Below, piece by piece: positions 192-57,468 of a DNA stretch of 64,000 bases. The DNA is from Minisyncoccota bacterium (GTDB taxonomy: Bacteria; Patescibacteriota; Minisyncoccia; Phycocordibacterales; UBA9973): positions 1,099-65,098 of the forward strand of contig JBAZXO010000003.1 of assembly GCA_041659785.1 (NCBI GenBank). Direction: 5' to 3'. The notes under the pieces were generated by a model. That model was given only the letters and a program-made list of their open reading frames with translations. It was not told the DNA's origin and did no database searches. Position 1 is the first letter of the stretch; each line of letters opens with the position of its first letter. The translations under genes and the position numbers were made by a program.

Positions 192-464
192 TTAAATTTC
201 AACTATTAAAAGTTTGCTAGGGTGATGATGCCCGTTCACAATCCGAACTTTATTTTTAGATATTTTGTAATGCTCTCTTATAATTTCTAGGATACGGTTA
301 TTCGCCATATTATTCTCTGCTTTTTCTTTTACTGAAATATCAAAATGGTCTGGTTTTTTTGCTTGCCCCGCTGGGCGGGGTGAAAAAATTTCTTTTTTAG
401 CCCCTGCTGTGACCTTCACATAGATATAAAAACTTTTCTGTATTTTATTTATTTTACCTGACAT
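192..464 (-). CDS. DUF167 (YggU-like) small protein
   Basis: 90-aa ORF with a KVTAGAKK...G-rich core typical of the UPF0235/DUF167 family. Overlaps the stop of the upstream protease gene by 16 nt. Contains GC-rich palindrome 366-380. Confidence 0.5.
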   Translation of the reverse strand: MSGKINKIQKSFYIYVKVTAGAKKEIFSPRPAGQAKKPDHFDISVKEKAENNMANNRILEIIREHYKISKNKVRIVNGHHHPSKLLIVEI

Positions 465-7000: not shown

Positions 7001-10000
7001 CTCCTCCTTGTTGTAAAACTAAATTTCCATAATTTACTCCTCCTCCAATAATATTATCAATCACTCCATAGGTATCTCCAGTTGCAGCACCATGTCCAAA
7101 TCTAAGAAGTGAACCAGCTGAACCGAATGTAAAAGTACTTGTAGTTGTATAAATTCCATTATTGGGGCTTGTTGGTACTTCTCTTACCTCAAACGCTGCA
7201 TTTGGTGTTGATGTTCCAACTCCTATCTTCCCATTCCCTAAAACTACCATTCTTGTCCCACCAACCAATGTGTATGAAAGTCCTGAAGCAGTTGTAGAAA
7301 ATGCTACAGAAACAGTTAATACTGTATCACTTGAGATTGTTGCAATTGTTCGAACAGTTTCCCCTGATACTGTTATGGTGTCACCCACCTTAAACATATT
7401 TATAAATTTGGTACTTGTACCAGTTAATGTAGTAGTTCCATTTGTAGCAACAGTTCCCACTCCAGCAGTTCCCTGGGCGACAGAGAAATTTGATGAACTA
7501 TTTCCTAAGCCCGTTACAGCAAGAGTCGTGCTAACACTCACATTCCCCGTGTTGGTTGCTAAAGATATATTTCCTGAACCTGCTCCATGTCCTATAAAGA
7601 TACTAGCATTAGGCCCAATATTTAAATCATTACTTGCATCAATGTCTGCCAATCTAAGATTGGCTGTATTTGCCGCATTCCTTACATAAAGACCACTAGT
7701 ATTACTGAGCAGAATATTTCCAGCCACTTCCAATTTCTGCACTGGGGCTGTTACACCTACCCCTAAATTACCACTAATTATCATATTTCCTGCTCCAGGG
7801 TCTGTTGCGACATAACTATTTCCAAGAGATAAACCACCCGTGGTGGTCAATCTCATTTTTTCTGTAGCAACTGCGAGGTTACTAGCTGAAGTATAAAATT
7901 GTTGTGTGTATCCTACCGTTCTAAAATGTAAAGCTCCACTATTGCTAGAATCAAAAGCATTCAAACTTATTGTATTTGCAACAGGTTTAGCACTGTATAA
8001 CGTAGCATCTGTTGCTTCACTTATTTCTAATTTACCCCTAGGCCCCGTTGTGCCAATGCCGACGTTTCCATTGCCTCCAATTGTTATTCCACCTATACCA
8101 TCATAAGCACTAGTTGGAGTTTCTATTCTTATGGCATTCACAGGATTTCCAGAAGTGACTTGTCTTCCTTGTAAAATTAATCCAACACCATTTACAGAAT
8201 TTCCTTGTCCTGCTACCAAATATCCATAAGGTGTGCCTGCACCGTATCTGCCCAAATAATATTTTCCAGATGAATCATCAAGAATTTCCGATGAACCATT
8301 CACACTCAATTTCTGTCCCGGCGTCACTGTTCCGATACCGACGTTGCCAGAAGTTGTCGCCATATTTACACCACCAAGAAAAGCAGAGGAGTTAACTGTG
8401 TCATCTATTAAAATTCTTTTAAGAGCATGTAAACCGTAATCACCTGAAGTAACATAAATACCATTTGCAGCTGAATTTACGCTTAAAGCGTAGTTAACAT
8501 TCCCAGCACCTCCCACACTTAATAAAGAAACCGGTGCCGTTGTCCCAATCCCGACATTCCCATTTGTATCAATCCTCATTTTTTCTGCACTGTTAATAGA
8601 AAATATATATTTTCCTAGAGTAGCAGAGGGTAAATCAAACGCCATTTGTGGAGAAGATGCTCCATATCCAGCAATAATATTTGCGTATTCTGTAGATGCT
8701 GCAAAAAATCCTACTTTAGCTAATGTATTTGCTCCAGTCCCATTGTTTGATAATCTAAGAACTTCAGTAGTTGTCCCTGAAGAAGAACTCACTACATCTA
8801 ATTTAGCAGATGGCCCCGTCGTTCCTATCCCGACACGTCCGTTCGTCGTATCAACATTCAAAACATTGGTCGTCCCATCTGCTTTGTTGATTTGAATTGC
8901 AGTAATGGAATCTACGGAAGGATAAATTTTATTTCCTATTAAAGATGCAATTGTCGGAGTCACTATTGTTGGACTCGTATCCACCACAAACTTTGTTCCT
9001 GTTCCTGTTTGTGAAGCGATAGATGTGGCATTACCGACGGAAGTTATAGGACCAGTTAAGTTTGCATTTGTAGTTGCAGAGTCTGCAAGAACTGCTCGTG
9101 CAACATAAAGATTCGGAACGAGCGTTGTAGAAGTGACAACAAGTGGAGCTGTACCAATAGCTAAAGTAGAAATGAATTGATTATCTGTACGAACAGATCC
9201 ACCGGAAACATCCAACTTCGCTCCTGGCGCCTTCGTCCCGATGCCAATATTTCCTGTTGAAATAGTTGCACCTGTTCCATCAAGTGCCGTACCGTAAATC
9301 AAGTTACCGATGTTAAGCTGATTTGAGGCAGTTGCACTTGCTACGGCTACGTCATTACCGATCGAAATGTTGTTAGAACCTGTGGTGACTTGGTTACGAG
9401 AAGCAGCAAGGGTCGAATTACCGAGAAATACATTGCGAGCACCAGTGGTGACACCATAGCCAGACTGATAACCGACGAAAGTGTTGTAGTCGGAGCCATT
9501 AGCCGCGCTAACTCCAGCAGTAAAGCCAACATATACGCCCCCTTGGTTGGTATATAAAGCTAGACCTTGCGCGGCAGAACGACCAATTGCAGTGACCGAA
9601 GTAGCTGCTGTATTATAAACGAGAGCATCTGTACCAGTGGCAGTACTGCCACTACCTGTAGTGTTGTATTTTAAAGAATCCGCACCAGTCGCAACATTGC
9701 CACCACCAGTAGTATTGTATTGAAGAGACCCTGCACCAGTCGCAGTACTCTGATATCCTGTAGTATTGGTATTTAAACTGTTGTAACCATAAGCGGTATT
9801 TTGAGTAGCGGTCGTGCTATTTTGAAGAGATCCTGAACCACTCGCGGTATTTTGAATACCAGTTGTATTTGAAAAAAGAGCTTGGTAGCCATTTGCAGTA
9901 TTTTGATAACCGATATCGTTTTGACTAAGAGCTAGAGCGCCACTTGCGGTGTTGTAATAACCGGTGGTATTTGCACCAAGAGAGTTCGCGCCACTTGCAG

Positions 10001-11495
10001 TGTTGTAATAACCTGTTGTATTAGGAGCAAGAGCGCTCTCACCTATTGCAGTGTTGGAAGAACCAGTAGTATTGGCATACAGAGCAACTAAACCGTATGC
10101 AGTATTTGAATTACCTACAGTATTAGAATAAAGAGCATTCTTACCACTTGCAGTATTGGAAGAACCTGAAGTGTTTGAATAAAGAGTGTTCTCACCAATA
10201 GCAGTATTGCTTTCACCTGTGGTGTTAGAATAAAGGGATTGATAACCAACTCCAACATTAAATCTACCAGTGGTGTTAGAAAAACCGCTTTGATAACCAA
10301 GGAAAGTATTTTGATATCCCGCATTCACGTTTCCCGCTTGATAACCAAGAGAAGTTCCTAGAGTTGTATTGTCAAAATTAATAAGATTTGCTACTTGAAT
10401 GGTATTGTTCGGTGTTACTGTACCTAATCCTAATCGATGACTCGTCGCATTATAAAATAAATTTGCATTGTCTTCTAAAATACCGCTCGCTCCTTGAAAA
10501 AAGACTGAACCGAGGGTGAGAGCAGGATTCATTGATCCAGTAACACTTCCAGTGATAGTTCCTGTGACATTCAAATTCCCGGTGAGAGTAGAATTACCTG
10601 TAACACTTAGACCTCCTCCCAAGACAGAGGTACCAGTAACGGTTAATTCTCCAATCTTCGCAGTGTTGGTAGTGAAATGATTTGAAGATAATTCAGTCGC
10701 AGAGAACATGCTTCCACCAGCAAAGTTAATAGCTGGATTGGGTTGAATAATACCAACGTTTCCGTAAGTTACAGGAATAGGAGCATAACCTCCACCCCCA
10801 GAAGATCCGCCCGCACTACCTGCAGGGCCAGCTGGACCTTGGGGCCCCACCGGTCCTGCAGGACCGGCGGGGCCTTGGATAGTGACAATTTTTGTCACAA
10901 CTGTTTGTGAAGGTGTAGCAGCAGACGTAGTAGTAGATAAAGTGGTGGGTGCTGGAGTTGGAGTATTTGCTTGAGTAAGAATAACACTAGTAGGAGCATG
11001 TACGGGCGGTACTACCTTACCCACAGACGTCGAAGTTTTATAACCTAAATTTTTTATACTTCCAGATAAGATTGAAGTGTAATTTTCATAAGTAGTATTT
11101 ACATATGTGGAATAATTATTATAAGTATTTGATATATTTTTAGATAAATCTTGTGATACACCTCTAAATATCTTGGATATATCCCCGACTGATTTCGCAA
11201 CATACTTTTTATAATCATTAAAAAATGAAGAAGTATTGTTTAAAATATTTGAAGCAATAACTTGTGCAGAAAGAGAAACTTTTACGGGTTGACGTTTTAT
11301 GACTGTTAAAGTTTTTTTAACTGGTTCCTTGGCTGGAGTAATAAAATTTTTGTATATGGTATTTAAACCAGAAATACTAAGATTATCAAAAGCAAAAATG
11401 GGAGTGGAGAAAGAAAAAATAAAAGCAAATAAAATAGCAAAAACAGCAAAAAACCTCAAAAAGGCTATTTTTCTATTAGGGAGTTTTTTTGCCAT
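4041..11495 (-). CDS. giant surface protein: collagen-like GPA repeat, beta-helix tail-fibre-like repeats, S74-type intramolecular-chaperone domain, C-terminal Pro/Thr-rich tail
   Basis: 2484 aa. N-terminal signal/anchor (FLRFFAVFAILFAFIFSFSTPIFAF). GPAGPAGPVGPQGPAGPAG repeat. Dozens of NTAxGxxAL/YSNTTGxxNTA repeats and GNVGIGTTxPxxKLxV motifs. Near the C-terminus, NIICAPSRREFKNTITDL...LDTNAILSTTVKAIQEMN resembles the phage tail-spike/endosialidase self-cleaving chaperone domain. Ends in a (PT)n / PVPAPTP tail. TAA stop. Confidence 0.8.
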   Translation of the reverse strand: MAKKLPNRKIAFLRFFAVFAILFAFIFSFSTPIFAFDNLSISGLNTIYKNFITPAKEPVKKTLTVIKRQPVKVSLSAQVIASNILNNTSSFFNDYKKYVAKSVGDISKIFRGVSQDLSKNISNTYNNYSTYVNTTYENYTSILSGSIKNLGYKTSTSVGKVVPPVHAPTSVILTQANTPTPAPTTLSTTTSAATPSQTVVTKIVTIQGPAGPAGPVGPQGPAGPAGSAGGSSGGGGYAPIPVTYGNVGIIQPNPAINFAGGSMFSATELSSNHFTTNTAKIGELTVTGTSVLGGGLSVTGNSTLTGNLNVTGTITGSVTGSMNPALTLGSVFFQGASGILEDNANLFYNATSHRLGLGTVTPNNTIQVANLINFDNTTLGTSLGYQAGNVNAGYQNTFLGYQSGFSNTTGRFNVGVGYQSLYSNTTGESNTAIGENTLYSNTSGSSNTASGKNALYSNTVGNSNTAYGLVALYANTTGSSNTAIGESALAPNTTGYYNTASGANSLGANTTGYYNTASGALALSQNDIGYQNTANGYQALFSNTTGIQNTASGSGSLQNSTTATQNTAYGYNSLNTNTTGYQSTATGAGSLQYNTTGGGNVATGADSLKYNTTGSGSTATGTDALVYNTAATSVTAIGRSAAQGLALYTNQGGVYVGFTAGVSAANGSDYNTFVGYQSGYGVTTGARNVFLGNSTLAASRNQVTTGSNNISIGNDVAVASATASNQLNIGNLIYGTALDGTGATISTGNIGIGTKAPGAKLDVSGGSVRTDNQFISTLAIGTAPLVVTSTTLVPNLYVARAVLADSATTNANLTGPITSVGNATSIASQTGTGTKFVVDTSPTIVTPTIASLIGNKIYPSVDSITAIQINKADGTTNVLNVDTTNGRVGIGTTGPSAKLDVVSSSSGTTTEVLRLSNNGTGANTLAKVGFFAASTEYANIIAGYGASSPQMAFDLPSATLGKYIFSINSAEKMRIDTNGNVGIGTTAPVSLLSVGGAGNVNYALSVNSAANGIYVTSGDYGLHALKRILIDDTVNSSAFLGGVNMATTSGNVGIGTVTPGQKLSVNGSSEILDDSSGKYYLGRYGAGTPYGYLVAGQGNSVNGVGLILQGRQVTSGNPVNAIRIETPTSAYDGIGGITIGGNGNVGIGTTGPRGKLEISEATDATLYSAKPVANTISLNAFDSSNSGALHFRTVGYTQQFYTSASNLAVATEKMRLTTTGGLSLGNSYVATDPGAGNMIISGNLGVGVTAPVQKLEVAGNILLSNTSGLYVRNAANTANLRLADIDASNDLNIGPNASIFIGHGAGSGNISLATNTGNVSVSTTLAVTGLGNSSSNFSVAQGTAGVGTVATNGTTTLTGTSTKFINMFKVGDTITVSGETVRTIATISSDTVLTVSVAFSTTASGLSYTLVGGTRMVVLGNGKIGVGTSTPNAAFEVREVPTSPNNGIYTTTSTFTFGSAGSLLRFGHGAATGDTYGVIDNIIGGGVNYGNLVLQQGGGNVGIGTTGPTANLHVVRNSADTLPTAIFENTNAAGFTNVELNRVSTARFALTNYATNGTTDWMTGTAYNGGAGNSAYSIGTGINLSDSKLTVLTTGNVGIGTTNPTLLFQVGERGGMGSDGVFQWGQALTGNSRGVLTWDTDRAIISTPLNLDLQIAGVNRLRIDSTGNVGIGTIAPSGILSVTPTQYSTGTASQSLTTITGVGTVWTSAMVGSQFVFANGTSAGTITAFGSTTSLTVSTSQTVTSQAYNIAYTGLQVGSTGNVGIGTTTPQSLLSILSNSSGASTQINSGNSDIIPALSFQSLATTWSSAANGFGFFYSGSTGNLNITARNSSVDSNALTITRIGGNVGIGQTTPTAKLDILDTTLAGSGSLAGSALNIAQTWNTTGAPVGIKYTITDTASAATALPLQILGGATGTTNLISVNKTGVLTMNSGIIAGGIISTTSYYTSTAAPSSVPNSGLYSNYSASGTTSGSLLGIGSGVTRTNTSGTQAIVQIYAPYNQVASTAANTDLLINRVETAVGSGAQLLIDAQVGSVSKFKVDNTGAVTANYVALTDKVYALGLSNNATGNNSTILSSTTGTIISRNIADANSALTVNQANAGSTGLILDAQFGGVSKATISTLGALRIPYLSPLTGGILSVINETFSGAAGKVPFQLLPTFTNTAGTTSPLVIAPVYNQVTSTAANIDLLINRTETSVGSGVQYLIDAQVGGVSKFSVTNTGVVQQKGCTTAGGLNADASGNIICAPSRREFKNTITDLASGLPSVMALRPVSYIFNGDMNLGNAIHFGFISEEVAAVTPEFATHDAEGKPYGLDTNAILSTTVKAIQEMNLNIEGVSGTLQLSSGQTISPATESFVTAFFNNVYAKVGTWLADATNGIGDVFANVFNAKEKICIDGECLTKDDVRALLLLAHPAGSLPTPTPTPTPTPTPAPVPAPTPTPDPAPVPVVDPVPAPVPTPTPVPVPDPVPTPAPNPVPAPSPTTP

Positions 11496-15476: not shown

Positions 15477-17867
15477 CTAGACAACTATGTTGATAAGTCT
15501 GTTTTTCACATAGATTACCTTTTTCACCGTCTTGCCCAATATGTGCTTCAAAACAGTCTCGTCTGATAATGCTTCCTTTTTTATTTTCTCTTCATCATCA
15601 TCCGCTCTTATCATGATCTCCGTTCTGAATTTGCCGTTTATTTGCACTACTATTTTTATCTCTTCATCTTCCATTAGACTTTTGTCTTCTTTGGGCCAGC
15701 TAGAAAGGTTGATTGATTTCTTTTCTCCTAACATACTCCACAATTCTTCTGTGACGTGTGGCGCAAATGGTGAAAGAATTTGCAAAAACTTTTTATAATC
15801 TTCGAGTTCAATATTTTCTGTCGTGCCAGAGGACAGGCAGGCCTTTTCCATCTCTGTCGCTAATATCATCATTGAAGAAATTGCGGTGTTGAAATACATA
15901 CCTTCAATGTCTTCTGTGACTTTTTTGATTGTTTTATTTAGTAATTTCGAAAGTTTCGGCACAGAAAAATTTGGGCCGTGTCGGAGCCCGCTTGCGGGTA
16001 AAGCGGACGAATTTTTTTGTGTCGAAACTTTTACACCTATTCTCCAAACTTTTTCAATGAATCTTCTTGAGCCAATGATACTTTCTGTAGACCAAGCGAC
16101 AGATTGACTAAATGGTCCCATAAACATCTCATAGACACGCAGAGTGTCAGCCCCGTATATTTTCACCATTTCGTCAGGATTGATAACATTTCCAAGCGAT
16201 TTTGACATCTTTACACCCCCTTCCCCCAAGATCATTCCATGAGAAGTGCGTTTTTTATACGGTTCAGCTGTAGGAACAAGCTTTAAATCAAATAAGAATT
16301 TATGCCAAAAACGTGAATACAAGAGATGGAGAGTAGTGTGCTCGTTACCTCCATTATACCAATTTACCCCGCCCGTGGCTGGGTCGCTTCCAAGCCAATA
16401 TTTTAAATTCTTTTTATTAGCAAATGTTTTTTTATTTTTTGGATCTGTATAACGAAGATAATACCAGCTAGACCCTGCCCAGTTTGGCATCGTATCTGTT
16501 TCCCTCAAGGCCCTCCCTTTACACTTGGGGCATTTTGTATTGACCCATTTTGTAATATTTGCTAAAGGTGACTCACCACTATCTGTGGGTTCATAATTTT
16601 TAACTTTTGGAAGTTCTACGGGTAAATCACGCTCCGGTACTGGAACAATGCCACACTTCTTACAATGTACGACAGGTATCGGCTCTCCCCAATATCGCTG
16701 ACGAGAAAATACCCAATCACGAAGCTTGAATTTTGTAATTTTTTTTCCAAAATCTTCAAAACCTGCTTTTTGATAATTTTCCACAATAGGCAATTTAAAT
16801 TTTTCTGCGAATTCTTTATCTCGTATATCATCAGCCGGCACGGCCATTATTGCTCCTGTGCCATAGTGTGGAAGGACATAGTCAGCTATCCATATTGAAA
16901 TCTCTTCTTTGTTTGCGGGATTAATTGCTTTAATACCCTTAAGCTCTATCCCCGTCTTTACTTTGTCTGTAGAGGTGCGTTCTATGTCTGTTTTGTTTTT
17001 TACTTCTTTAATATATTTCTCAACTTCACTCCAGTTTTTTATTTTATCTTTTAATTCTTTTACCAACTCATGTTCTGGTGCAAGGACTAAATAAGTCGCC
17101 CCGAAAATGGTATCTGGACGTGTTGTAAACACCCGGACACCAGGTGTCCGGGTGGGGATAACTATTTTAAAATCTATTTCAGCACCTTCGCTTCTTCCTA
17201 TCCAGTTTCTCTGAGCTAATTTTATTTGTGGTAAATAGTCTACAGTATCTAAATCCTTATCGAGCCTGTCAGCATATTTTGTAATAGCGAGCATCCATTG
17301 TTCTTTTTCCCTTTTCTCTACAGGAGTTCCACACCTTTCACAAAGGCCACCGACGACTTCTTCATTTGCAAGCCCCGTCTTATCCTTCGGACACCAATTA
17401 ATCGTCATTTTAGCCTTATAAGCTAAGCCTTTTTTCAAAAACTGAAGAAATATCCACTGAGTCCATTTATAATACTTTGGGTCAGTTGTGTTTATTTCTC
17501 GTGACCAGTCAAAAGAAATGCCCAAAGACTTTATTTGTCTTCGAAAATTATCGGTATTTTTTTTAGTTACCACCCTTGGATCCTTGCCTGTTTTTATGGC
17601 AAAGTTTTCTGTCGGTAAACCAAAGGCATCCCAACCAATTGGGTATAAAACATTAAAACCTTGCAATCTTCTTTTCCTAGAAATAATATCCATGCCTACA
17701 TACGAACGAGGGTGTCCGACATGAAGCCCATCTCCTGATGGGTATGGAAATTCTATCAAGCTAAAATATTTAGGTTTTTTCGAAAAATCCTTGGCTTGGT
17801 ATGTTTTATTCTTATCCCAAACATTTTGCCACTTTTTTTCTATTTTTTTATGGTCGTATTCTTTCAT
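15477..17867 (-). CDS. leuS: leucyl-tRNA synthetase
   Basis: 796 aa. HVGH (HIGH-class) motif, PIGWDAFGLPTEN, VFTTRPDTIFGATYLVLAPEH, LHLLYSRFWHKF, KMSKSLGN motif. Contains GC-rich palindromes at 15987-15998, 16364-16385 and 17132-17152. Confidence 0.95.
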   Translation of the reverse strand: MKEYDHKKIEKKWQNVWDKNKTYQAKDFSKKPKYFSLIEFPYPSGDGLHVGHPRSYVGMDIISRKRRLQGFNVLYPIGWDAFGLPTENFAIKTGKDPRVVTKKNTDNFRRQIKSLGISFDWSREINTTDPKYYKWTQWIFLQFLKKGLAYKAKMTINWCPKDKTGLANEEVVGGLCERCGTPVEKREKEQWMLAITKYADRLDKDLDTVDYLPQIKLAQRNWIGRSEGAEIDFKIVIPTRTPGVRVFTTRPDTIFGATYLVLAPEHELVKELKDKIKNWSEVEKYIKEVKNKTDIERTSTDKVKTGIELKGIKAINPANKEEISIWIADYVLPHYGTGAIMAVPADDIRDKEFAEKFKLPIVENYQKAGFEDFGKKITKFKLRDWVFSRQRYWGEPIPVVHCKKCGIVPVPERDLPVELPKVKNYEPTDSGESPLANITKWVNTKCPKCKGRALRETDTMPNWAGSSWYYLRYTDPKNKKTFANKKNLKYWLGSDPATGGVNWYNGGNEHTTLHLLYSRFWHKFLFDLKLVPTAEPYKKRTSHGMILGEGGVKMSKSLGNVINPDEMVKIYGADTLRVYEMFMGPFSQSVAWSTESIIGSRRFIEKVWRIGVKVSTQKNSSALPASGLRHGPNFSVPKLSKLLNKTIKKVTEDIEGMYFNTAISSMMILATEMEKACLSSGTTENIELEDYKKFLQILSPFAPHVTEELWSMLGEKKSINLSSWPKEDKSLMEDEEIKIVVQINGKFRTEIMIRADDDEEKIKKEALSDETVLKHILGKTVKKVIYVKNRLINIVV

Positions 17868-18476: not shown

Positions 18477-18941
18477 AAAAAATTTGAAGAATTCTCAAAA
18501 AAATTAACTTATTGGATTGGCTCACCGCAGTCCATCTTACTTCATACCGTCTTTTTTGGAGGTATTTTTATTTTGAGATTTTTTGGAGTTGCATCTTCTG
18601 AAATATTGCTTATTTTGACTACGATTGTATCATTAGAAGCTATCTACCTCTCCATCTTCATTCAAATGACCGTAAATAAACATGCTGAAGAGCTTGAAGA
18701 AGTTTCCGAAGATATCGACGAGATTCAAAAAGACGTCGATGAGATTCAGGAAGATGTGGAAGGTATTGAAAAAGATGTGGATGAGATTCAAAAAGACGTG
18801 GATGAGATTCAGGAAGATGTGGAAGACATTGAAGAAGTAAAACCGAAACTCATTTTTGAAAAAATAGAAAAAAATCTACAAGATTTAATGGTAGAAATAT
18901 CTGAACTTAAAAAGAAAAGTGAAAATAAGTCTAAAGAGTAG
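18471..18941 (+). CDS. small membrane protein with acidic coiled-coil tail built from a 66-nt tandem DNA repeat
   Basis: Two N-terminal TM helices, then (DEIQKDVDEIQEDVEGIEKDV)x2 encoded by a near-perfect 66-nt direct repeat about 18719-18850. Divergent from the 17874-18476 gene. Confidence 0.45.
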   Translation: MHKKFEEFSKKLTYWIGSPQSILLHTVFFGGIFILRFFGVASSEILLILTTIVSLEAIYLSIFIQMTVNKHAEELEEVSEDIDEIQKDVDEIQEDVEGIEKDVDEIQKDVDEIQEDVEDIEEVKPKLIFEKIEKNLQDLMVEISELKKKSENKSKE

Positions 18942-19881
18942 CCCACACAGCAGTATTAGCAAGAGATACGATACGATTGTTCGATTTTTCTAAGACACAA
19001 AGTTCACCTTGTTCTATATGTCCCTTGAAATCCCCGCCTAGGCGGGCAGGCTTCAGGGCATTATCTAATGCATAGCCCAAAGAAAGAGAGGAGGAGTCCA
19101 CTGCATAAGAGGTTAAAATAACAAAAAGTGGTTTATCGCTCAAAACTTTCTGCACCTGTAAAAGAAGCTTCGGCAACATTTCTTCTAGCTTCCATATCTC
19201 TCCCTTAGGTCCCCTGCCAAACTTCGGCGGGTCCATAATCACACAGTCATATTTATTCCCTCTTTTTTCTTCCCTCTCTAGAAATTTAATAGCATCATCT
19301 TCTATAATACGCATTGGTAAATCTTTTAGGTCACCATTCATTTCTTGGTTTTCTTTAGCCCATTTTAAAGTTTGCTTAGATGCATCCAGATGTGTAACTT
19401 CTGCACCTGCACGAAGAGCAAAAAGGCTTGCGACTCCAGTATATCCAAAAAGATTTAGAAACTTTATAGGTTTCTTTGCATTTTTAATTTTCTCCTCTAT
19501 AAAATCCCAATGGCTCGCTTGTTCAGGAAAAAATCCCAAATGTCTAAAGGGTGTAGGTGAAGCTAAAAACTTTACCCCTTTATAAGACATCTCCCATTTT
19601 TTATCCTTGTCAAACATCGGGTGTTTGACAAAAGTCCAGCCAGCTTTTGCCCCAGTTTTAGAGCTCCAAAATTTACCATCTGCCTTTTTCCACATTTGTT
19701 GAACACTCGGTGTTGAACATTTGGGCCAGACGGCATCTTCGTATGGACGCACGAAAGTATATTTACCAAATTTTTCTAACTTCTCTCCCTCTCCTGTATC
19801 TAGAAGCTGATAGTCATTTTCACCCGCCGACGAGGAGGGCCAATCTTTTGCACAAAAAATGCTTATATCTTTTTTTATCAT
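18931..19881 (-). CDS. class I SAM-dependent rRNA methyltransferase (RlmI/RlmK-like)
   Basis: NLFGYTGVASLFALRAGAEVTHLD (SAM-binding motif I) and IMDPPKFGRG (DPPxF motif IV) typical of RlmI-type 23S rRNA m5C methyltransferases. Contains palindrome cccgcctaggcggg at 19032-19046. Confidence 0.6.
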   Translation of the reverse strand: MIKKDISIFCAKDWPSSSAGENDYQLLDTGEGEKLEKFGKYTFVRPYEDAVWPKCSTPSVQQMWKKADGKFWSSKTGAKAGWTFVKHPMFDKDKKWEMSYKGVKFLASPTPFRHLGFFPEQASHWDFIEEKIKNAKKPIKFLNLFGYTGVASLFALRAGAEVTHLDASKQTLKWAKENQEMNGDLKDLPMRIIEDDAIKFLEREEKRGNKYDCVIMDPPKFGRGPKGEIWKLEEMLPKLLLQVQKVLSDKPLFVILTSYAVDSSSLSLGYALDNALKPARLGGDFKGHIEQGELCVLEKSNNRIVSLANTAVWATL

Positions 19882-20699
19882 ATTAAAAATTCAATTACGT
19901 CGCCATCTTGTACGATATATTCTTTACCCTCAGTTCGGACCCAACCTTTTTCACGGGCTTTAGCGAAACTCCCTGCTTCAATCAACTGATCATATGATAC
20001 CACTTCTGCACGAATAAACTTCTGCTCGAAATCTGTATGTATCGAACGGCCAGCAAAAGGTGCTGTCGCCCCACGCAAAGTGGTCCAAGCCCTGGATTCA
20101 TCTTCGCCTGTCGTAAAAAAAGTAATCAAATTTAATAAATTATATCCGGCCTTAATAAGGTTATCTAAACCTGTACCAAAAATCGGATCAACTTCTAGGT
20201 ATGGCCCAGGGAGCTTAGATATGAAATCTTTTTTTACATTCTCTGCTGCTTCTGAAGTGTTTAAAACATAAAGCGTGGGTTTTTTAATTCCCGCTTGTTC
20301 TAATTCAAAATTTATAACCTCTATATCAAAAAGTGGATCAATATGATCGTGAACATGAATCATATCTTTATCTTCAAAAATTCGCACAACTTCGATAATC
20401 GCATCCACCTCACGTATATGTGAAAGAAATTTATTACCGAGTCCTGCCCCTGTAGATGCGCCCTTTACAAGCCCGGCGATATCTACAAACTCCACCACTG
20501 CTGGAATAGTTTTCTTTGATTTAGATATAGCAGATAATTTAAGAAGTCTATCATCTGGCACAGGTACGATACCGACAGAAGGATCAATAGTACAAAAAGG
20601 ATAATTCTCTGCCGGCACACCCTTCTTAGTAAGAGCATTAAAAAGCGTGGATTTTCCCACGTTTGGCAGACCTACGATTCCGATTGATAGTGAAGACAT
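19878..20699 (-). CDS. ychF: Obg-family ATPase YchF (short form)
   Basis: N-terminus IGIVGLPNVGKSTLFNALT (G1), DIAGLVKGAS (G3), C-terminal TGS-like DGDVIEFLI. 273 aa. Start overlaps the 3' end of the upstream recombinase ORF by about 60 nt. Confidence 0.8.
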   Translation of the reverse strand: MSSLSIGIVGLPNVGKSTLFNALTKKGVPAENYPFCTIDPSVGIVPVPDDRLLKLSAISKSKKTIPAVVEFVDIAGLVKGASTGAGLGNKFLSHIREVDAIIEVVRIFEDKDMIHVHDHIDPLFDIEVINFELEQAGIKKPTLYVLNTSEAAENVKKDFISKLPGPYLEVDPIFGTGLDNLIKAGYNLLNLITFFTTGEDESRAWTTLRGATAPFAGRSIHTDFEQKFIRAEVVSYDQLIEAGSFAKAREKGWVRTEGKEYIVQDGDVIEFLI

Positions 20700-22284
20700 T
20701 GATATTTGATTCTATTGGAATATATCCATAAACTTGTAATTTTTCCCTTGTTCCGACCACCCTATCTATAACTGTTCTGATTATGTCTTTTTTTGAGCTA
20801 AAGTTCAAGTTATTACTTAATGCTTTTGATACTTTTTGAGTGAAGGTTTTTATCTCAGATAATTTCGGTAGTGTTTTTTCTCCAATTTTCTGATTTTCTA
20901 AATCAGCATTAGCTATTTGATTTTCGAATAAAGATATCTTCTCTTTAACAGGAGCAAGATATTCTTTTAATTGTTCAATTGTAATTACACCAGAGCCATA
21001 AGCCTTAGCGTAACGACCTTCCTGGTCTTTAAGTTTAGATATTTCTTTTCTAGTCTCTTCTGTATTTATAACAGAAGTACAATTTCCATTATTTTGATTA
21101 TTGATCCAACGTTCCACTTGCTTGGTTAATAATTCTGGTGAACTCATAAGTTCTGTAGTTTTTTCCCACACTAACGGATCTAATATCTTGGCATTTAGGC
21201 CCTTCTCTTTACAACTAGGCTGTAAAGGAAAACTTTTTATTCTATCAGTGCAACGATAATACAAATGTTTACCACGCTGTGGTCCTTCCCCTGCTCGTCT
21301 TTTACCACAATTGCACCATATTTTACCAGCCAAAAGATACTCATTTTTAGTATTTCTTTCAGACATTTCAAAATTTGATCTTAATATCTGTCCGACTCTA
21401 TTAAATAATTCTTCATCTATAATTTTAGGAGTAGGGATTTTTATCCATTCACTTTCTGGTTTCATTCGTCTACTGGTTTTCTTAATTTTTTTATATCCCT
21501 CTTTCTTCGTTGGATTAACTGGTATCGTAGCGTAAGAAGCTCCATAATGGCCTTCACCTATATATGTCCTATTCCTTAATAACGTACTCAACGTGCTAGT
21601 GTTCCAAACACCTCTTTTACTTTTACGAGGAGGTATGCCTAACTCTTGAAGTCTTCTGACAATACCTCTTAATCTTAATCCATCATTATCTACCCAAGAA
21701 AAAATACTTTTTACAATTTGAGTTTCTCTTTCATTTATTTCATAGTGACCTTGAAGAAAATCGGCATCTCCTCTCTTCCCTTTCTTTACTATAAAATTAT
21801 ATCCGTAAGGAGCTTCACTAACAATGATATGTCCCTCTTTTGCCTTTCGTACTTTACCTAGTCTAAATCGTTCTTTTATTTTCATTCTTTCGTATTCAGT
21901 AAATACTCCTCTCATTTTATACATAATAATATCCTCGTCTGTTTTTGGTTGTGGAATCGTAACGAAAAGAACCTCAATTTCTAATTCTTTTAATTCCTCT
22001 ATCACCACTTCCTGCCATGCACCTCGTCTTGCTAATCTATCTGGATCATAAATTAAAACTGCGTTCCATTTTTTTAGTTTTGCATCCATGCGAAGTTGAT
22101 CTAATGCTGGACGTGCAAGAGAATCACCACTCCAACCATTATCAATATATTGCTTGACTATGATATAGCCATTCTTTTCAGCGAATTGATTAACAGCAGA
22201 AAGTTGCGTTTCAATAGTTCCCTCGTTTTCTTGGTTTGAAGTTGAAACTCTTCCGTATGTTGCGATTAATTTTATTTTTTCCAT
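20638..22284 (-). CDS. large serine recombinase (phage-integrase type)
   Basis: N-terminal resolvase catalytic domain with YGRVSTSNQ (catalytic Ser) and DRLAR. Recombinase domain, Cys-rich zinc ribbon (CNCGKRR...YYRCTDR) and C-terminal coiled coil. 548 aa. Confidence 0.9.
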   Translation of the reverse strand: MEKIKLIATYGRVSTSNQENEGTIETQLSAVNQFAEKNGYIIVKQYIDNGWSGDSLARPALDQLRMDAKLKKWNAVLIYDPDRLARRGAWQEVVIEELKELEIEVLFVTIPQPKTDEDIIMYKMRGVFTEYERMKIKERFRLGKVRKAKEGHIIVSEAPYGYNFIVKKGKRGDADFLQGHYEINERETQIVKSIFSWVDNDGLRLRGIVRRLQELGIPPRKSKRGVWNTSTLSTLLRNRTYIGEGHYGASYATIPVNPTKKEGYKKIKKTSRRMKPESEWIKIPTPKIIDEELFNRVGQILRSNFEMSERNTKNEYLLAGKIWCNCGKRRAGEGPQRGKHLYYRCTDRIKSFPLQPSCKEKGLNAKILDPLVWEKTTELMSSPELLTKQVERWINNQNNGNCTSVINTEETRKEISKLKDQEGRYAKAYGSGVITIEQLKEYLAPVKEKISLFENQIANADLENQKIGEKTLPKLSEIKTFTQKVSKALSNNLNFSSKKDIIRTVIDRVVGTREKLQVYGYIPIESNINVFTINRNRRSAKRGKIHAF

Positions 22285-22289
22285 ATTTT

Positions 22290-22481
22290 TTATTTAATTT
22301 TTATCACTTCTTCAAAAAGCAAATCAAATGCTTTATTAATTTTTTCTTCTGAAGAAACAATATAGTTGTAATCCAAAGAGGGACAACGAAGTGAGTTCTT
22401 ACTGCTACGCAAAAGCTCTCGTTGCCCCTCTTTAGGTTCAAGGTTTTTCTCACTTATTAAGCTTTGACGTAGCTCATTCAT
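22290..22481 (-). CDS. small hypothetical protein immediately upstream of recombinase (possible directionality factor; speculative)
   Basis: 63-aa ORF, 5 nt upstream of the recombinase start, same strand. Confidence 0.3.
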   Translation of the reverse strand: MNELRQSLISEKNLEPKEGQRELLRSSKNSLRCPSLDYNYIVSSEEKINKAFDLLFEEVIKIK

Positions 22482-22627
22482 TATAACATTCTTTGGCTAA
22501 TTTCTAATAATAATTTGACTCCTGACTAATTCTTCGTTCTTTTAGTGTTGGTACGAGTAATTGATTTTGAACCCTTGTAAAATATGGCTTATTTTAGGAC
22601 GGGTTTTACATAGAGGGACCCTGGGAC

Positions 22628-22876
22628 TTATATCGACAATATCTCAAGATCTCTTGCTGTGTATGGAGTATCAAGATTTTTGAATTCTCCTTTAGCAACC
22701 AATTTATTGATTGTTATTTGTCTTCTTTGAAATCTTTGGAAGGGCTTTCTCTTACAGATTCTTTCTCCTGGATACCAAACCACTTCAATCTTGAAGTTAG
22801 GATTTGGGTCGCCTGCACAAATTGGCGCTTCACAATTTAAGTTATGGTTAATTTCTCTCATGTTGTGTTCCCCCAA
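22628..22876 (-). CDS. hypothetical protein
   Basis: 82-aa ORF with a Cys-containing N-terminus. No family recognised. Confidence 0.3.
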   Translation of the reverse strand: MGEHNMREINHNLNCEAPICAGDPNPNFKIEVVWYPGERICKRKPFQRFQRRQITINKLVAKGEFKNLDTPYTARDLEILSI

Positions 22877-22918
22877 AAGGGGGAGTTAGTGGTTAATAAA
22901 TAATTCTTAACGTTTCTT

Positions 22919-23200
22919 CTACTTAACTTTTTTATTATGTTTCAAGAACTCTTCCTCGCTTGCGAAGAAAGTTTTAGTTACAAATGTTAAGTAATCTTTT
23001 GACAACCTAAAAGCAGCTTTCAAGTCTTTTTTATTAAACATGAGACGTTTTACTGCTTTGACGGTGTCTTTTGGTAAGATTAATTTTGATGATAGAGCTA
23101 ACATTAACCCTATTAAAATCTCTTCTTTTGAGAATCCATCTGCACAACCAAAGAGCTTTTCATCCATTTCAATTACTTTTATTTCTATTTCTTTTTTCAT
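22919..23200 (-). CDS. hypothetical protein
   Basis: 93-aa ORF, Lys-rich. No family recognised. Confidence 0.3.
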   Translation of the reverse strand: MKKEIEIKVIEMDEKLFGCADGFSKEEILIGLMLALSSKLILPKDTVKAVKRLMFNKKDLKAAFRLSKDYLTFVTKTFFASEEEFLKHNKKVK

Positions 23201-23369
23201 TGCATAATTTTTAATTATTTATAATCTGATGTTCGACTTTTAATTAACCATCATTAATCAGATAATATGAAAAATAGAAAGCTTAAAAAATCCTTAAAAA
23301 TAAAGGCAGGAAAGAAAAAAGCCCTCTAAAATAGAGAGTCTTACAGGTTATTCACAATTTTAAGTAAAG

Positions 23370-24065
23370 TTAAGCAGATTTAAGCTGTCGTGTTGTTTTG
23401 TTTTTTGTAATTAATTTAATTTGTATGTTCGGTACAATATATCCATCTTCTTCTCTTAAAATTTTCGTTACTTGAAATCCTTTCGTGTAGAGTGGATTTG
23501 TTTGTTGATAATTAAAATAATCATAAAGATTTTTATCAAAAGGCACTTCTTCTTTTTTAGCTAATTTATATATTAATCCCCACCTGTTATTTCTAGAAAG
23601 ATTCATTGGTTCGTCTTTATAATTACCATTTATGTAGATTTTAACTCTACCTCGTTCTGTCTCATCTTTAAGAACTTCAATTTTCTTTATGAAATTTCCA
23701 TTAGTAGCAGTACTACCTTTAACATCTAGTTTATCTTTTAGATATGTTTTTATAAGGTCGTCTGTAAAATCACAAAATACAGCGACATCATTGCTTGAAT
23801 ACGTACGACTATAATCAAAAGAATAACTGGGTTTATAATTTAACATATTATGTTTCCTGTAAAAGTCCTTATCGTTTATTACTTCATCAAGTATGGAAAA
23901 ACACTCAGCTTGATCGCTATCATCTAAGTGAGGTGCTACTTGAAGTTTGTCTAATTCAACCATGGAACAACTGCCTGAGTATGGTAAAGATACCTGCTCT
24001 TTTAAAATAGTTTGAAGAAGCCAGATTAATCTTTCATCATGATTTAGCCCTTGCATGATTAGCAT
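23370..24065 (-). CDS. hypothetical protein
   Basis: 231-aa ORF, island cargo. No family recognised. Confidence 0.4.
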   Translation of the reverse strand: MLIMQGLNHDERLIWLLQTILKEQVSLPYSGSCSMVELDKLQVAPHLDDSDQAECFSILDEVINDKDFYRKHNMLNYKPSYSFDYSRTYSSNDVAVFCDFTDDLIKTYLKDKLDVKGSTATNGNFIKKIEVLKDETERGRVKIYINGNYKDEPMNLSRNNRWGLIYKLAKKEEVPFDKNLYDYFNYQQTNPLYTKGFQVTKILREEDGYIVPNIQIKLITKNKTTRQLKSA

Positions 24066-24173
24066 AGTAAATAATATTATAGCAGATATTTACAGTATTA
24101 TTAATTTCTAGAAAATCCTTCGCCACACAGACAGCTTCAAAAAGAATTGAAAAAGTACTGTATTTGTCTAAGG

Positions 24174-24779
24174 CTATTGAGATTGATATTCTTTTATCAT
24201 TTCTATGGTTTTTTGTGCATCTCTTACTTGATTAAACAATCCCGATTGATTGCAGAGTTTCAAGAAACGTTGAAAGCGCTTGGTCCATTTAGATCTATAT
24301 AGAGGTCGTGGAATGCTTTCTCTCATATCAAGAAGGGCTAATCTCTTGCTTTGCTGGTAGAGCATTCTGCCATGGTCACTTCTGCTATTAATAGTAGTAG
24401 ATTTATAACGAAGACAATGGCATTTAAAACAGGCAAAGAACGTGCTTCCTGGGATGTTCTTGAGATATAAAGCATTGGTTTTATGTCCACAACCACAAGT
24501 TAAATAGGTTCTAGTGCCATAGGTTAATTCTCGTTCGAATAAAAGAATTTTTTGTGGTTCTCCGTTAAAATCAACGACAAGATAGGTGTTCCCATCACAA
24601 CTTTCCTCTGTGGAATAGAAAAGGACTGAGGGCTTACCATTATGTATAAAATTTAGGTATTCTCCCTGCACTACTTCTTTGTTTCTAGCTTTCTGTAGAT
24701 TCTTTCTCAATAGTTTTGTGCTTAACGCAAAACATGATTCTTTTAATATCTTCATTATTAAATGATAACAAAGTACCAA
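24174..24779 (-). CDS. hypothetical protein with Cys4 zinc-ribbon-like motif
   Basis: CGCGH...ACFKCHC cluster. 201 aa. Confidence 0.4.
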   Translation of the reverse strand: MVLCYHLIMKILKESCFALSTKLLRKNLQKARNKEVVQGEYLNFIHNGKPSVLFYSTEESCDGNTYLVVDFNGEPQKILLFERELTYGTRTYLTCGCGHKTNALYLKNIPGSTFFACFKCHCLRYKSTTINSRSDHGRMLYQQSKRLALLDMRESIPRPLYRSKWTKRFQRFLKLCNQSGLFNQVRDAQKTIEMIKEYQSQ

Positions 24780-24809
24780 AAACTATTGAGTTTAGTGAAA
24801 ATATTTTAT

Positions 24810-25757: not shown

Positions 25758-26177
25758 TTATTTATATCTCTTATAACATTCTTCTCTGTCTGTCTTTGCC
25801 TTAGCACGTATTTGGTCTGCCTCTATTTGTAGCTCTTGAAATGAAGGAGGCTTACAGTATTCTTGGAGTGTCATTTTGCCAGAAGTGATAAGATTATTTA
25901 CATTACTACCATGATCAGAATTAAGACAATCATTTTGTGATTCTGGTGAACTTAAATCTATGGCCAATTCACGATTCCTTTTTATTTCACTTTCAGCATT
26001 ATCGTTGATTTCATCAATACATTGATTCAATGGTTCCTTTGCCAGTTGATCCAACTGAGCCCTTTCTTCTAAAATTGCTTTCTCTTTATTTTCTTGAATA
26101 CTAGAAGAAATTATTTTATATCCGACTAAGGCAAGAAATACAACTCCTATTAAAACAATGATTTTTTTATTGTCCAT
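25758..26177 (-). CDS. membrane-anchored coiled-coil hypothetical protein
   Basis: 139 aa, N-terminal TM helix (IIVLIGVVFLALVGY), charged helical remainder with several Cys. Confidence 0.35.
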   Translation of the reverse strand: MDNKKIIVLIGVVFLALVGYKIISSSIQENKEKAILEERAQLDQLAKEPLNQCIDEINDNAESEIKRNRELAIDLSSPESQNDCLNSDHGSNVNNLITSGKMTLQEYCKPPSFQELQIEADQIRAKAKTDREECYKRYK

Positions 26178-26184
26178 AAAAATA

Positions 26185-27137: not shown

Positions 27138-27141
27138 CATT

Positions 27142-27720: not shown

Positions 27721-27740
27721 TTATTAACTTAATATAAAAA

Positions 27741-27977: not shown

Positions 27978-27992
27978 AATATATAAACATTA

Positions 27993-28027: not shown

Positions 28028-28038
28028 GCTACTTTATA

Positions 28039-34606: not shown

Positions 34607-34609
34607 GGA

Positions 34610-54431: not shown

Positions 54432-54559
54432 ATAATTTTTTTGATATATTCCCCACTAGGCGGGGCAAGTTATTAATTTAAGTAAAAAAATAGTAAAAAA
54501 TATCCCTTTGAGGGATATTTAAATAGCACGAAAAAGCGCATGCTTAATACGTGCCAATA

Positions 54560-55122: not shown

Positions 55123-57468
55123 TTATAATTTCTTACTTTTAATACGTAATGAATTTCCGACTACCGACACAGAGGACATTGCCATGGCGAACCCTGCAAA
55201 TACCGGTGAAAGCAACCAACCGAATATCGGATAAAACAATCCTGCGGCAAGAGGAATACCAACAACATTATAAAAGAATGCCCAGAAAAGATTCTGCTTT
55301 ATTCCGAGCATTGTTATCCTCGAAAGTTTTATTGCTTTTACAAGCTTTGAAATATCTCCACCGAGAAGCGTAATGCCTGCTGATTCGATAGCCACATCCG
55401 TACCCGTCGCCATGGCAATACCCACATCTGCTTGCGCAAGAGCAGGAGCATCATTTACTCCGTCCCCTGCCATAGCTACAACCTTTCCTTCCGACTGAAG
55501 TTCTTTTATTTTGTTTAGTTTATCTTCCGGCATTGCCTCCGCTACAATTTCATCAATACCAATAAGTTTTGAAATATAGTTTGCTGTATTTTTATTGTCT
55601 CCAGTAAGCATTACAATTTTTATGCCAAGCTTGTGGAGATTTTTCACCGCTTCAATTGCTTCAGGCTTTATAGCGTCAGCTATCATAAATATCCCTAATA
55701 CCGAACTTTTATCTGTGAGAATAACGGGTGTCTTGCCTTCTAATGTTTCTTTCTCTAATAACTCACGATCAAAATTTAATTTTAGATCTTCAACTAATTT
55801 TGTATTACCGGCAAAATATTCTGTACCATTAAATGTTCCTCTTAATCCTTTGCCTTTTATAATTTCAAAATTTGAGATCTCATCGATTTTTATGTTTTTA
55901 CTTGCCCCGCCGTGGCGTGGGTCTTTTGCGTAATTAATTATTGCATGAGCAATAGGATGTTCTGATTTATTTTCCAACATTGTAAGGATTGAAACAATTT
56001 CATTATCCGTTTTATTTGAAAAATTCTTAATTGAAATGAGTTCTGGGCGCCCGTTAGTTAAGGTTCCAGTTTTGTCTACTACGACGACGTTTACTTTATG
56101 CAATTTCTGAAGTGTTGCTGCATCTTTGATTAAAATTCCTTCTTTCGCTCCTTTACCTACACCCACAATAATAGCTGTAGGAGTCGCGAGTCCAAGTGCA
56201 CACGGACAGGCAATAACAAGTATACCTACGAAGGAAACTAAGCCGAAAGAAAGTGCTTGAGAGAAACCTAAATATTGCGTTCCAAGAATAAGCCATAAAC
56301 CAAGCGTAACAATGGCTATGCCTAAAACGATAGGCACAAAAACACTTGATATTTTATCAGCTAATGCCTGTATCGGCGCCTTGCTGCCTTGCGCTTCTTC
56401 TACCATCTTTACTATATGAGCAAGAAGAGTTTCCCCGCCGACTTTTGTCGCCTTAAAAGTAAAAGAACCCGTAGTATTTATCGTCCCAGACACAACATTA
56501 TCACCTTCTTTTTTTTCTACTGGCATCGGCTCGCCTGTCACCATTGATTCATCTACATAAGATACGCCAGATACAACAACGCCATCTACTGGAATTTTGC
56601 CAGCTGGTTTTACTACAATTAAATCTCCATGAACCACTTCTCCTATGGGTATTTCAATCTCTTTCTCATCTCTAATCACAAGAGCTGTCTTTGCTTGTAA
56701 ATTTAAAAGTTTTTCTATTGCATCTCCAGTTTTTAGTTTTGATCGTGTTTCAAGATATTTACCAAGAGTGATAAAAGCGATGACCACGATAGCCACATCA
56801 TAATAACTTTGATTAACATTTAAAAAGGGTTTAAGGCTTTCTTCGAAAGCGCTAAGGATAAAACTATAAAGCATAGCGACAGAAGTACCGAGGCCAATGA
56901 GTGTATCCATGTTGGCTTTTCCATAACGTAAAAATCTGTACAAACCAAGTAAGTATGGTTTCCCCACTACGAACAGAGTATAGGTAGCGAGTATTGGTAA
57001 AAGATGATGGAAAAATTCACTCCAGAAATAAGACATCTCCGTGACAAGGTTAAACCTTGTCAAAATATCCCAAGTCATTACAAAAATACTAATGATGACA
57101 ATAGGAATAAGGGAAAAGAGTTTATTCCTCATTTCTTTTAATTCTGCAAGTTTTTCTTTTTTTGTTTGATTAAGTCCGAGGTGTTCGGCATGTTCACTTT
57201 CACTCATGCCCATTTCGCTCGCAGTCATCTCACCATGATCCATTTTATTATCATCCTGATTTGCAACTATAGTGTAGCCAAGGTGTTCTAATTTCTTATT
57301 AAATTGATCAAGATTCGTTTTACTCTCATCGAAAGAAATTTTTGCATTTTCGGTACCTGGATTAACAGATATATCCTCTACTCCATCAATTTTTTTGACA
57401 GTTCTTTCTATTATACTGGCACATGAAGCACAGTGCATTCCTTTTACATTGTACGTTTCTTTTTTCAT
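55123..57468 (-). CDS. copA: copper-translocating P1B-type ATPase
   Basis: N-terminal [20 protein letters not shown] motif ([12 protein letters not shown]), DKTGTLT phosphorylation site, [10 protein letters not shown] hinge. 781 aa. Confidence 0.9.

Follow-up and report, generated by a model that had tools for sequence, protein, structure and literature searches.

The Rickettsia palindromic elements (RPEs) described by Ogata et al. (2000) are about 150 bp (100-150 bp) long, and each of their families carries a conserved peptide, as summarised in PMC10969869. The GC clusters of yeast mitochondria combine constrained stems with variable loops, merge with one another and are accompanied by flanking co-conversion tracts (PMC4478555); mitochondrial GC clusters or hairpin elements have also been found in other fungi, a sponge and algae (PMC4478555, PMC2800124). 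The repetitive extragenic palindromes and bacterial interspersed mosaic elements (REP/BIME) are described in PMC3733652 as extragenic, marked by a GTAG or CGTC tag, and co-occurring with a gene for a REP-associated tyrosine transposase (RAYT; Y1/HUH). Among the MITEs (miniature transposable elements with inverted repeats), the QMITE of Coxiella is an example that is intragenic and in-frame (PMC5896051). Here we analyse a 64,000-nt stretch of DNA (the window; positions 1,099 to 65,098 of contig JBAZXO010000003.1), a fragment of a bacterial chromosome from Candidatus Paceibacterota (Patescibacteria, or candidate phyla radiation, CPR) with a GC content of 35%. A GC-rich palindrome lies in-frame within its leucyl-tRNA synthetase (LeuRS) gene, leuS (15477-17867, minus strand), and a similar sequence lies within copA (55123-57468, minus strand). 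Both proteins have 100% identity to entries assigned to Candidatus Paceibacterota; the nearest named relatives belong to Candidatus Nomurabacteria. With moderate confidence, we take these copies to be members of a family of GC-rich palindromic elements, ultra-small (about 18-24 nt) and dispersed, that are mobile or copied between sites and tolerated in coding sequence.

Like the RPEs, the sequences studied here are in-frame palindromic repeats that occupy unrelated housekeeping genes of a reduced genome, are missing from orthologs and fall into several families. Both are translated into additional stretches of peptide, which in the RPEs lie where the protein fold allows and here may do so too. 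The present family differs in being only 18-24 nt long, very GC-rich and read in several frames, with no conserved peptide, with synonymous conservation of the stem, and with a Patescibacterium as the host. Sequence homology with the RPEs seems implausible because of the length. The earlier note on this DNA had likened the leuS sequence to the RPEs; we retain the comparison as a working analogy (a palindromic repeat, translated in-frame, at putatively permissive sites) and abandon it as an assignment to an RPE family.

The family shares with the mitochondrial GC clusters the form of short GC-rich palindromes in a strongly AT-rich genome, occurring sporadically in close relatives. In both, stems are constrained and loops vary, new hairpins arise by merging or nesting, and substitutions in the flanks accompany the insert. 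GC clusters differ in belonging to organelles, in lying mostly between genes or in introns, and in a typical length of 30-60 nt with an AG or TAG target duplication; the family here is bacterial and shorter, and six of its seven window matches lie inside genes. REP/BIME are likewise dispersed in many copies, as imperfect GC-rich hairpins of 20-40 nt with a short tag beside the stem. Set against that description, our family is intragenic, carries a CTTG/CAAG tag in a subset of copies, and showed no RAYT or TnpA among the window open reading frames (ORFs) scanned with Pfam (about 30 of 49). MITEs resemble it as non-autonomous inverted-repeat elements able to fuse in-frame with host ORFs, but they measure 50-500 bp and have target duplications and terminal inverted repeats related to insertion sequences (IS); the copies described here have 18-24 nt, and no IS was seen among the scanned ORFs of the window. 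The small dispersed repeats (SDRs) of Nostocales cyanobacteria, which Elhai et al. reportedly described in 2008, are said to be about 21-27 nt long and mobile-looking, with nested insertions and hairpin potential, and our family is alike in its very small size, mobile appearance, nesting and potential to form hairpins. SDRs are reportedly mainly intergenic and do not form GC islands in an AT-rich genome; they are not known for conserved in-frame coding copies.

Within the library searched, we found no report of in-frame palindromic inserts in CPR/Patescibacteria. Translated palindromic mini-inserts are already known as such; new here are the very small size, the GC-island character, the conserved stem in essential genes, and the host phylum.

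Copies in leuS and copA

The variable block LGSDPATGGVN of LeuRS (site A; 16362..16394, minus strand) replaces TPVD of the insert-less orthologs, with a net gain of seven residues. It holds the 22-mer at 16364-16385 to which the earlier note had drawn attention and the imperfect hairpin ACCCAGCC-ACG-GGCGGGGT at 16366-16384; in coding orientation leuS has GGA AGC GAC CCA GCC ACG GGC GGG GTA (GSDPATGGV) here. The note had proposed an in-frame insertion of about seven residues, and the comparison with 65 close LeuRS orthologs (68-79% identity) confirmed it. Forty of the 65 read YWTPVD/N-WYNGG and are seven residues shorter, while about 13 carry the longer form YWLGxDPA(G/V/T)GGVN/D-WYNGG; in the remainder, different inserts of 2-20 residues occupy this position. 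The extra residues are patchy within related Paceibacterota and occur in none of the more distant LeuRS examined; the note had named their presence in unrelated lineages as refuting its proposal, so this check favoured it. Flanking changes accompany the insert (TP to LGx, VD to VN) and resemble the co-conversion tracts of GC clusters.

DNA of close relatives was compared as well (L-numbered below; P numbers denote orthologous proteins). At the leuS site, four of these relatives (L081, L082, L166 and L168) have a perfect 8-bp hairpin, ACCCCGCC-GGT-GGCGGGGT (GAC CCC GCC GGT GGC GGG GTA), and the general form in relatives is ACCCCGCC-NNN-GGCGGGGT. The relatives' hairpin folds at -16.4 kcal/mol (z = -3.2). 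The motif had been called a palindrome able to form a hairpin, and it is one, although the hairpin is clear only in the relatives and weak in the window copies. The closest relative, L171, combines a perfect stem with the ACG loop of the window, so the window copy has recently gained a single C-to-A mismatch in the stem. The 22-mer is thus a slightly decayed version of a perfect hairpin; copies have decayed in several lineages, including the window, L085, L086, L124 and L001. The insert is old, and a subset of related Paceibacterota have it too. The motif's GC-rich codons are indeed rare ones in this genome, where the codon-family shares are 0.11 for CCC, 0.11 for GCC, 0.12 for GGC, 0.15 for GGG and 0.07 for CGC.

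The second copy, reported earlier from copA, is present as GAC CCA CGC CAC GGC GGG GCA AGT (DPRHGGAS). The feature spans 55901..55923 on the minus strand; its 21-nt insert, CCCACGCCACGGCGGGGCAAG (55901-55921), encodes (D)PRHGGAS and has a bulged A in the stem. Alignment of 120 CopA orthologs likewise supported an insertion, the site being empty in 112. DPRHGGA recurs in only one other ortholog, P0178, and six others have different inserts at that site. In the DNA of this ortholog (L169; 76% protein identity) the 21-nt insert differs from that of the window only at the bulged base (A vs G), and roughly 11 of the 39 flanking nucleotides, counted by eye, are different, many of them synonymously. 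The insert-less allele reads GAA AAA at this point and has no GC-rich arm.

Aligned with each other, the window copies read GACCCA-GCCACGGGCGGGG in leuS and GACCCACGCCACGG-CGGGG in copA, which is the same DNA with two compensating 1-nt indels. These indels shift the frame, hence the middle residues AT in leuS and RH in copA. The near-identity of the two was no accident of the window's composition: the copA copy alone, of all other window sequences, comes within three edits of the leuS 19-mer, and such a match arose in 0 of 60 shuffles of codon order. The copA copy appears to be a frame-shifted variant of the leuS sequence and is probably the younger of the two.

The same DNA occurs at non-homologous sites in different genomes. 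Window copA GACCCACGCCACGGCGGGG and the leuS GACCCACGCCACAGCGGGG of L087 are identical at 18 of 19 positions, and the L087 leuS site (GAC CCA CGC CAC AGC GGG GTG) is the bulged-base variant of window copA. Peptides of this variant, SPSHGGASK and SSRHGGVNK, are also found at the DUF167 site of other genomes. DUF167 reads GCGGGGCAAG as AGQA, and copA reads it as GGAS. Across the family the DNA is read in three codon phases, giving the peptides DPATGG, DPRHGG, PRPAGQ, PARLGG and PSSSAG; the conserved entity is the DNA, not the peptide. An assembly artefact was rejected, as the same inserts were present in many independent assemblies.

The wider family in the window and in relatives

The family pattern is [CTTG]CCCCGCC-loop-GGCGGG(G), with the core CCCCGCC-loop(2-5)-GGCGGGG and the CTTG/CAAG tag in three of the seven window copies. 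We judged over-representation against synonymous-codon shuffling, which keeps the proteins, and codon-order shuffling, with 300 shuffles. CCCGCC-N0-8-GGCGGG with at most one mismatch is found at six window loci, compared with 0.19 expected under synonymous-codon and 0.03 under codon-order shuffling, and 0 of 300 shuffles gave six. The exact 10-mer CTTGCCCCGC has three window copies (DUF167, copA and intergenic) against 0.02 expected. The frequency of the motif is therefore well above that expected from codon composition; the earlier note had said that a frequency no higher than this expectation would undo its proposal. Chance is rejected by the shuffling tests of the family pattern, of CTTGCCCCGC and of the leuS 19-mer. 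One of the six loci, 19213-19231, lies in the conserved DPPKFGRG motif of a methyltransferase and probably is a chance match. Family loci number 18 in the relatives' DNA (245 kb), where 0.57 were expected; about 11 of the 18 are the sites used to choose the loci. The exact CCCCGCC-N-GGCGGGG matched only leuS orthologs in the fetched loci, so that strict patterns underestimate the family.

Among the family matches in the window, six of seven are inside genes and one is intergenic; five of the six are confirmed in-frame inserts, in leuS, copA and DUF167 and twice in an S-adenosylmethionine (SAM) methyltransferase. These inserts have 76-83% GC in a genome of less than half that value. The DUF167/YggU copy (362..380, minus strand; gene 192-464) encodes SPRPAGQA and reads CTTG + CCCCGC-TGG-GCGGGG on the plus strand, with the stem-loop at 366-380. 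Its status as an insert was predicted before inspection and then borne out, as 81 of 120 DUF167 orthologs lack it. Another 38 have SPR(P/L/R)-loop-AGQ(A/G) or a reading in a shifted frame, for instance SPRRGGAS or SPSHGGASK. A longer form, CCCCGCCC-ATCTC-GGGCGGGG, occurs in L172, with a stem of 8 bp and a loop of 5 nt against 6 bp and 3 nt in the window.

The SAM-methyltransferase gene (18931-19881) has two copies, both of them inserts when compared with syntenic orthologs. That at site 2 (19033..19050, minus strand) is an 18-nt insert, CCT GCC CGC CTA GGC GGG (PARLGG), with a perfect 14-nt palindrome, CCCGCCTAGGCGGG (CCCGCC-TA-GGCGGG), at 19033-19046. The outer stem CCT GCC CGC...GGC GGG was found in four genomes, with loops of 2 nt (window), 17 nt (L081), 7 nt (L083) and 23 nt (L087), and the insert is missing in six orthologs. 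That at site 1 (19820..19843, minus strand) is a 21-nt insert, CCC TCC TCG TCG GCG GGT GAA (PSSSAGE), whose stem, CCCTCC-TCGTC-GGCGGG at 19823-19839, has one mismatch; it is specific to the window, being missing in 8/8 orthologs examined, including the closest relative L171. The intergenic copy (54451..54469, plus strand) consists of CCCCAC-TAG-GCGGGG (54451-54465) followed by CAAG, and reads CTTGCCCCGCC-TA-GTGGGG on the minus strand.

These data bear on the possibility that the inserts are adaptive Gly/Pro-rich loops of LeuRS and CopA, with the palindrome and the GC-richness as by-products. The DPAGGG peptide is kept in about 13 of the 65 LeuRS orthologs, as such an adaptation would have it, and the inserts are predicted to lie in loops. 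In an AlphaFold2 model of LeuRS (mean pLDDT, the predicted local distance difference test, 74; locally of low confidence), site A falls in a segment with pLDDT <50 (residues 464-511) and no regular secondary structure. Two further insertion sites of the protein, B and C, are placed in a low-confidence loop between two helices (620-635, pLDDT <50), likewise without regular secondary structure, and in a turn between two strands, respectively; the modelled positions are compatible with tolerant loops, although low confidence does not by itself prove a surface loop. Shuffling that keeps the proteins nevertheless yields 0.19 loci instead of six, rare codons are fixed at synonymous sites, one copy is intergenic, and the same DNA in different frames gives the unrelated peptides listed above. 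We consider an adaptive loop highly improbable, and an origin at the protein level is ruled out by the frame and synonymous-site data.

With regard to distribution, all four combinations of presence and absence were seen for the leuS site-A and methyltransferase site-2 inserts, which means that at least one of these sites has undergone repeated gain, precise loss or recombination. The neighbour-joining tree of LeuRS scatters the carriers; this tree is star-like and weak.

Stem conservation and presumed mode of spread

The leuS stem is conserved at synonymous sites. In the hairpin codons of nine carriers, pairwise identity at third positions was 0.81 and their GC content (GC3) 0.89, compared with 0.36 and 0.42 in the leuS flanks (34 columns of four-fold or six-fold degenerate codons). 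GCC and GGG were fixed in 9/9 carriers and 95.8% of the stem cells were paired, while ten carriers had six different loop triplets. It follows that the stem is constrained at the nucleotide level or else has been renewed recently. This conservation is unlike simple decay, so an extra assumption is needed, namely selection, arm-to-arm correction or re-insertion. Its cause, we suggest, is a need of the element itself or arm-to-arm correction, and not a function for the host.

A host function would be the explanation if the hairpin were a cis-element (an mRNA structure, an antisense terminator, or a DNA recognition or uptake signal) that spread via recombination combined with selection or drive. 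The synonymous conservation of the stem in an essential gene, despite saturated synonymous divergence (dS), and the freedom of the loop would suit such an element well. Of the six substitutions in the stem, three are C-to-T and leave a G-U wobble pair in the sense RNA. Moreover, the copA copy is followed on the antisense strand by TCTTTTG, a weak tail, and was flagged as terminator-like, and GCCCCGCC...GGCGGGGC is a common phage terminator stem, in phage sequences with T-runs. Patescibacteria are naturally competent; known uptake sequences are, however, about ten times denser than the ~0.1 per kb of this family. The hairpin is also missing in most close orthologs, has decayed in several lineages, shows no compensatory pairs and is replaced by unrelated hairpins at the same sites. 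No U-tract follows it on the sense strand, and the counts of terminator-like matches are within the chance range. On balance, we find a host-used cis-element fairly unlikely. A sense-strand intrinsic terminator in particular was rejected, since there is no U-tract and the leuS site-A copy was flagged on neither strand. In Rfam and tRNA scans of the window, the motif fell within no known RNA. In scans of viral contigs, the tagged hairpin matched only intrinsic terminators of GC-rich phages (GCCCCGCC...GGCGGGGCTTTTT) and the copA-type 21-mer matched none, so these scans gave no evidence of a phage origin.

Under the dispersed-element reading that we prefer, the elements would be non-autonomous and spread as DNA, by insertion or by copying from site to site, presumably through transposition, homing or ectopic conversion. 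A copy would survive if its length were divisible by three and it came to lie in a tolerant surface loop of a protein; it would then be translated as a loop extension of 6-8 residues rich in Gly, Pro, Ala and Arg. After insertion, the stem would be kept at the nucleotide level, and the loop would mutate, shrink or take up nested hairpin material.

Several observations weigh against this proposal. Taken alone, the window hairpins are unexceptional, with -10.2 kcal/mol (z = -1.2) in leuS and -9.3 kcal/mol (z = -1.5) in copA. The leuS stems contain no compensatory base-pair changes, and thus show conservation without covariation; the stem has been kept across saturated synonymous divergence, and a decaying selfish insert predicts otherwise. 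The copy number is modest, at a density of about 0.03-0.09 per kb. Given the star-like LeuRS tree, it is possible that the leuS site by itself reflects a single gain followed by vertical descent. No transposase, RAYT, HUH or Y1 domain was detected among the Pfam-scanned ORFs, where the sole recombinase is a large serine recombinase. Five junctions, including those in copA, DUF167 and the methyltransferase, gave no consistent target duplication or target sequence; possible duplications, from few junctions, are AAGA in L169 copA and TATT at the intergenic copy. The CAAG tag could also be in part a native target sequence.

Insertion hot spots and their wider meaning

The insertion sites are hot spots of hairpin indels. 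A metagenome scan for LeuRS site A, run with a 69-residue query, returned many unrelated hairpins across Paceibacterota; the full-length LeuRS, compared with genome contigs, gave mostly distant Firmicutes among the matches listed. At site A, GACCCCGTTAGAG...CTCTAACGGGGT is present in L084, L097 and L101, occurs in tandem duplicate in L101 and has the outer GACCCCG/CGGGGT in common with the small element. L096 has an 18-bp perfect hairpin at this site, and a separate site-A family encoding SPxPSP..RKG occurs in L088, L092 and L153. Within site A of L101 (10001-10330), a hairpin element about 75 nt in length is duplicated in tandem (DPVRERSPQGDRSTASGRAFSN, present twice). The CopA site of L170 reads CTGCCTGC|GCAGGCAG. 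In a set of 20 ortholog groups, 87 indel segments of at least five residues were ranked by fold energy among same-length segments of the same gene: 40% belonged to the lowest 5%, and 28% to the lowest 1%. Most indels of at least about seven residues among the close relatives compared look like hairpin palindromes.

LeuRS site B has a GC-rich insert, ALPASGLRHGPNFS (15971..15999, minus strand), which contains CCCGC-AA-GCGGG between A/T runs and seems to represent a hairpin family of its own or a related one. The region (15971-16010) was flagged as terminator-like on both strands within the leuS ORF and is hypervariable in orthologs, in which the recurring peptides KNSSGLTLPGVPGGTHTVQNSS and NFSGPRFSEAPNPGQAVQNSS suggest a single DNA repeat translated in several frames. 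Site C, a third hypervariable hot spot, holds a different hairpin family, here as a perfect 21-nt palindrome, CCCGGACACC-N-GGTGTCCGGG (17132..17152, minus strand), which encodes PTRTPGV and folds at -21.1 kcal/mol (z = -4.0). Relatives have other inserts at site C, for example ARQDL.E, and L081, P0024 and P0033 have an 85-nt hairpin coding for LLSRxSHSNLNVVNE.NIAYVAEST.

The variety of hairpin sequences at the same hot spots could mean that palindromes are made locally, by template switching or hairpin-primed repair at indel-prone loop sites, and that the likeness between sites is convergence. Common outer stems around interiors of varying length, as if the centre had grown or shrunk, fit this account, and so do the tandem duplication in L101 and AT-rich perfect hairpins that belong to no obvious family, such as AATAATCGAGG...CCTCGATTATT in L081. 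Local generation does not readily explain why both arms are new relative to insert-less alleles (GAA AAA in copA), why the inserts have a GC content foreign to their surroundings, or why a 19-21-nt sequence with an asymmetric CTTG/CAAG tag and a bulged-base variant recurs at unrelated loci of different genomes. Simple template switching is rejected because both arms are new, and we judge local generation as a whole unlikely. Under the dispersed-element reading, the hot spots probably reflect tolerance of the protein rather than targeting.

Longer repeats and other structures were also observed. The methyltransferase of L082 (3990-4095) and the LeuRS of P0017, P0022 and P0104 have a hairpin element that measures about 100 nt, has a stem of 21 bp (-25.8 kcal/mol) and codes for NFLETAPSETKGQGTHTFLKNS; it is longer, from the same lineage and clearly dispersed, being in-frame in two proteins at three sites. 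About 4.7 kb downstream of leuS, the quasi-palindrome CCTGCCCGCC-AAT(T/C)GG-CAGGCGGG was found in L087 (11211), L088 (19184) and L168 (14766); its position is probably orthologous, and the half-units CCTGCC and CCCGCC are swapped between the arms. Many LeuRS of Paceibacterota (P0002, P0004, P0060, P0090 and others) reach 920-1350 residues because of extra annotated domains inside or fused to them, namely NUDIX (PF00293), PF04480/PF18741 and an alpha/beta hydrolase.

In the window itself, three intergenic GC-rich hairpins, at 1456-1474, 3963-4009 and 22869-22884 (GGGAGGCC-TGT-GGCCTCCC, TCCCCC...GGGGGA and CCTCCCC...GGGGAGG), are probably ordinary terminators, which indicates that terminators of this AT-rich genome normally have GC-rich stems. 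A giant ORF of 2484 residues (4041-11495, minus strand) has a higher GC content, of 0.39-0.46, and accounts for several GC islands that do not belong to the hairpin family; its 86-nt GC-rich run at 10795-10880, as judged from the DNA, resembles collagen-type Gly-X-Y repeats. The ORF at 2428-3459 (minus strand) is a homolog of the deoxyhypusine-synthase family (PF01916, E = 5e-36), and the same family is annotated beside the DUF167 gene in L172. The large serine recombinase (20638-22284) opens an AT-richer stretch, 20638-37000 (27-34% GC), which also holds genes for a C5 cytosine methylase (29388-30500), an N6/N4 methylase and ResIII/Z1 helicase-nucleases, as well as an AlwI-like endonuclease domain. 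This stretch is probably an integrated island with restriction-modification or defence genes. The sole Rfam match in the window is a LOOT RNA (RF03000; 26247-26368, minus strand; 68 bits, E = 1e-10).

A broader proposal would be that Paceibacterota, and perhaps Patescibacteria more widely, harbour an undescribed class of GC-rich hairpins of at most 25 nt that enter coding sequence and have actively maintained stems (through an RNA or DNA function, or as self-correcting or homing elements), with remodelling at hot spots as a major source of loop insertions in CPR proteins. We put this forward tentatively, as a possibility that may well not hold in full. The genomes of CPR/Patescibacteria are very small, but their conserved proteins abound in lineage-specific insertions that have had no explanation; our results suggest a source of these at the DNA level. 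One hairpin family at least is found repeatedly in unrelated genes and genomes, and in an essential aminoacyl-tRNA synthetase its stem shows synonymous conservation. Should this prove general, the selfish translated palindromes known from Rickettsia and organelles would extend to a major uncultivated bacterial radiation, and the inserts could serve as markers for tracking strains and lineages. Nucleotide constraints inside CPR coding regions would then affect estimates of the ratio of nonsynonymous to synonymous divergence (dN/dS) and alignment-based phylogenomics, and how mini-elements move and why their stems persist would become testable in a bacterial system.

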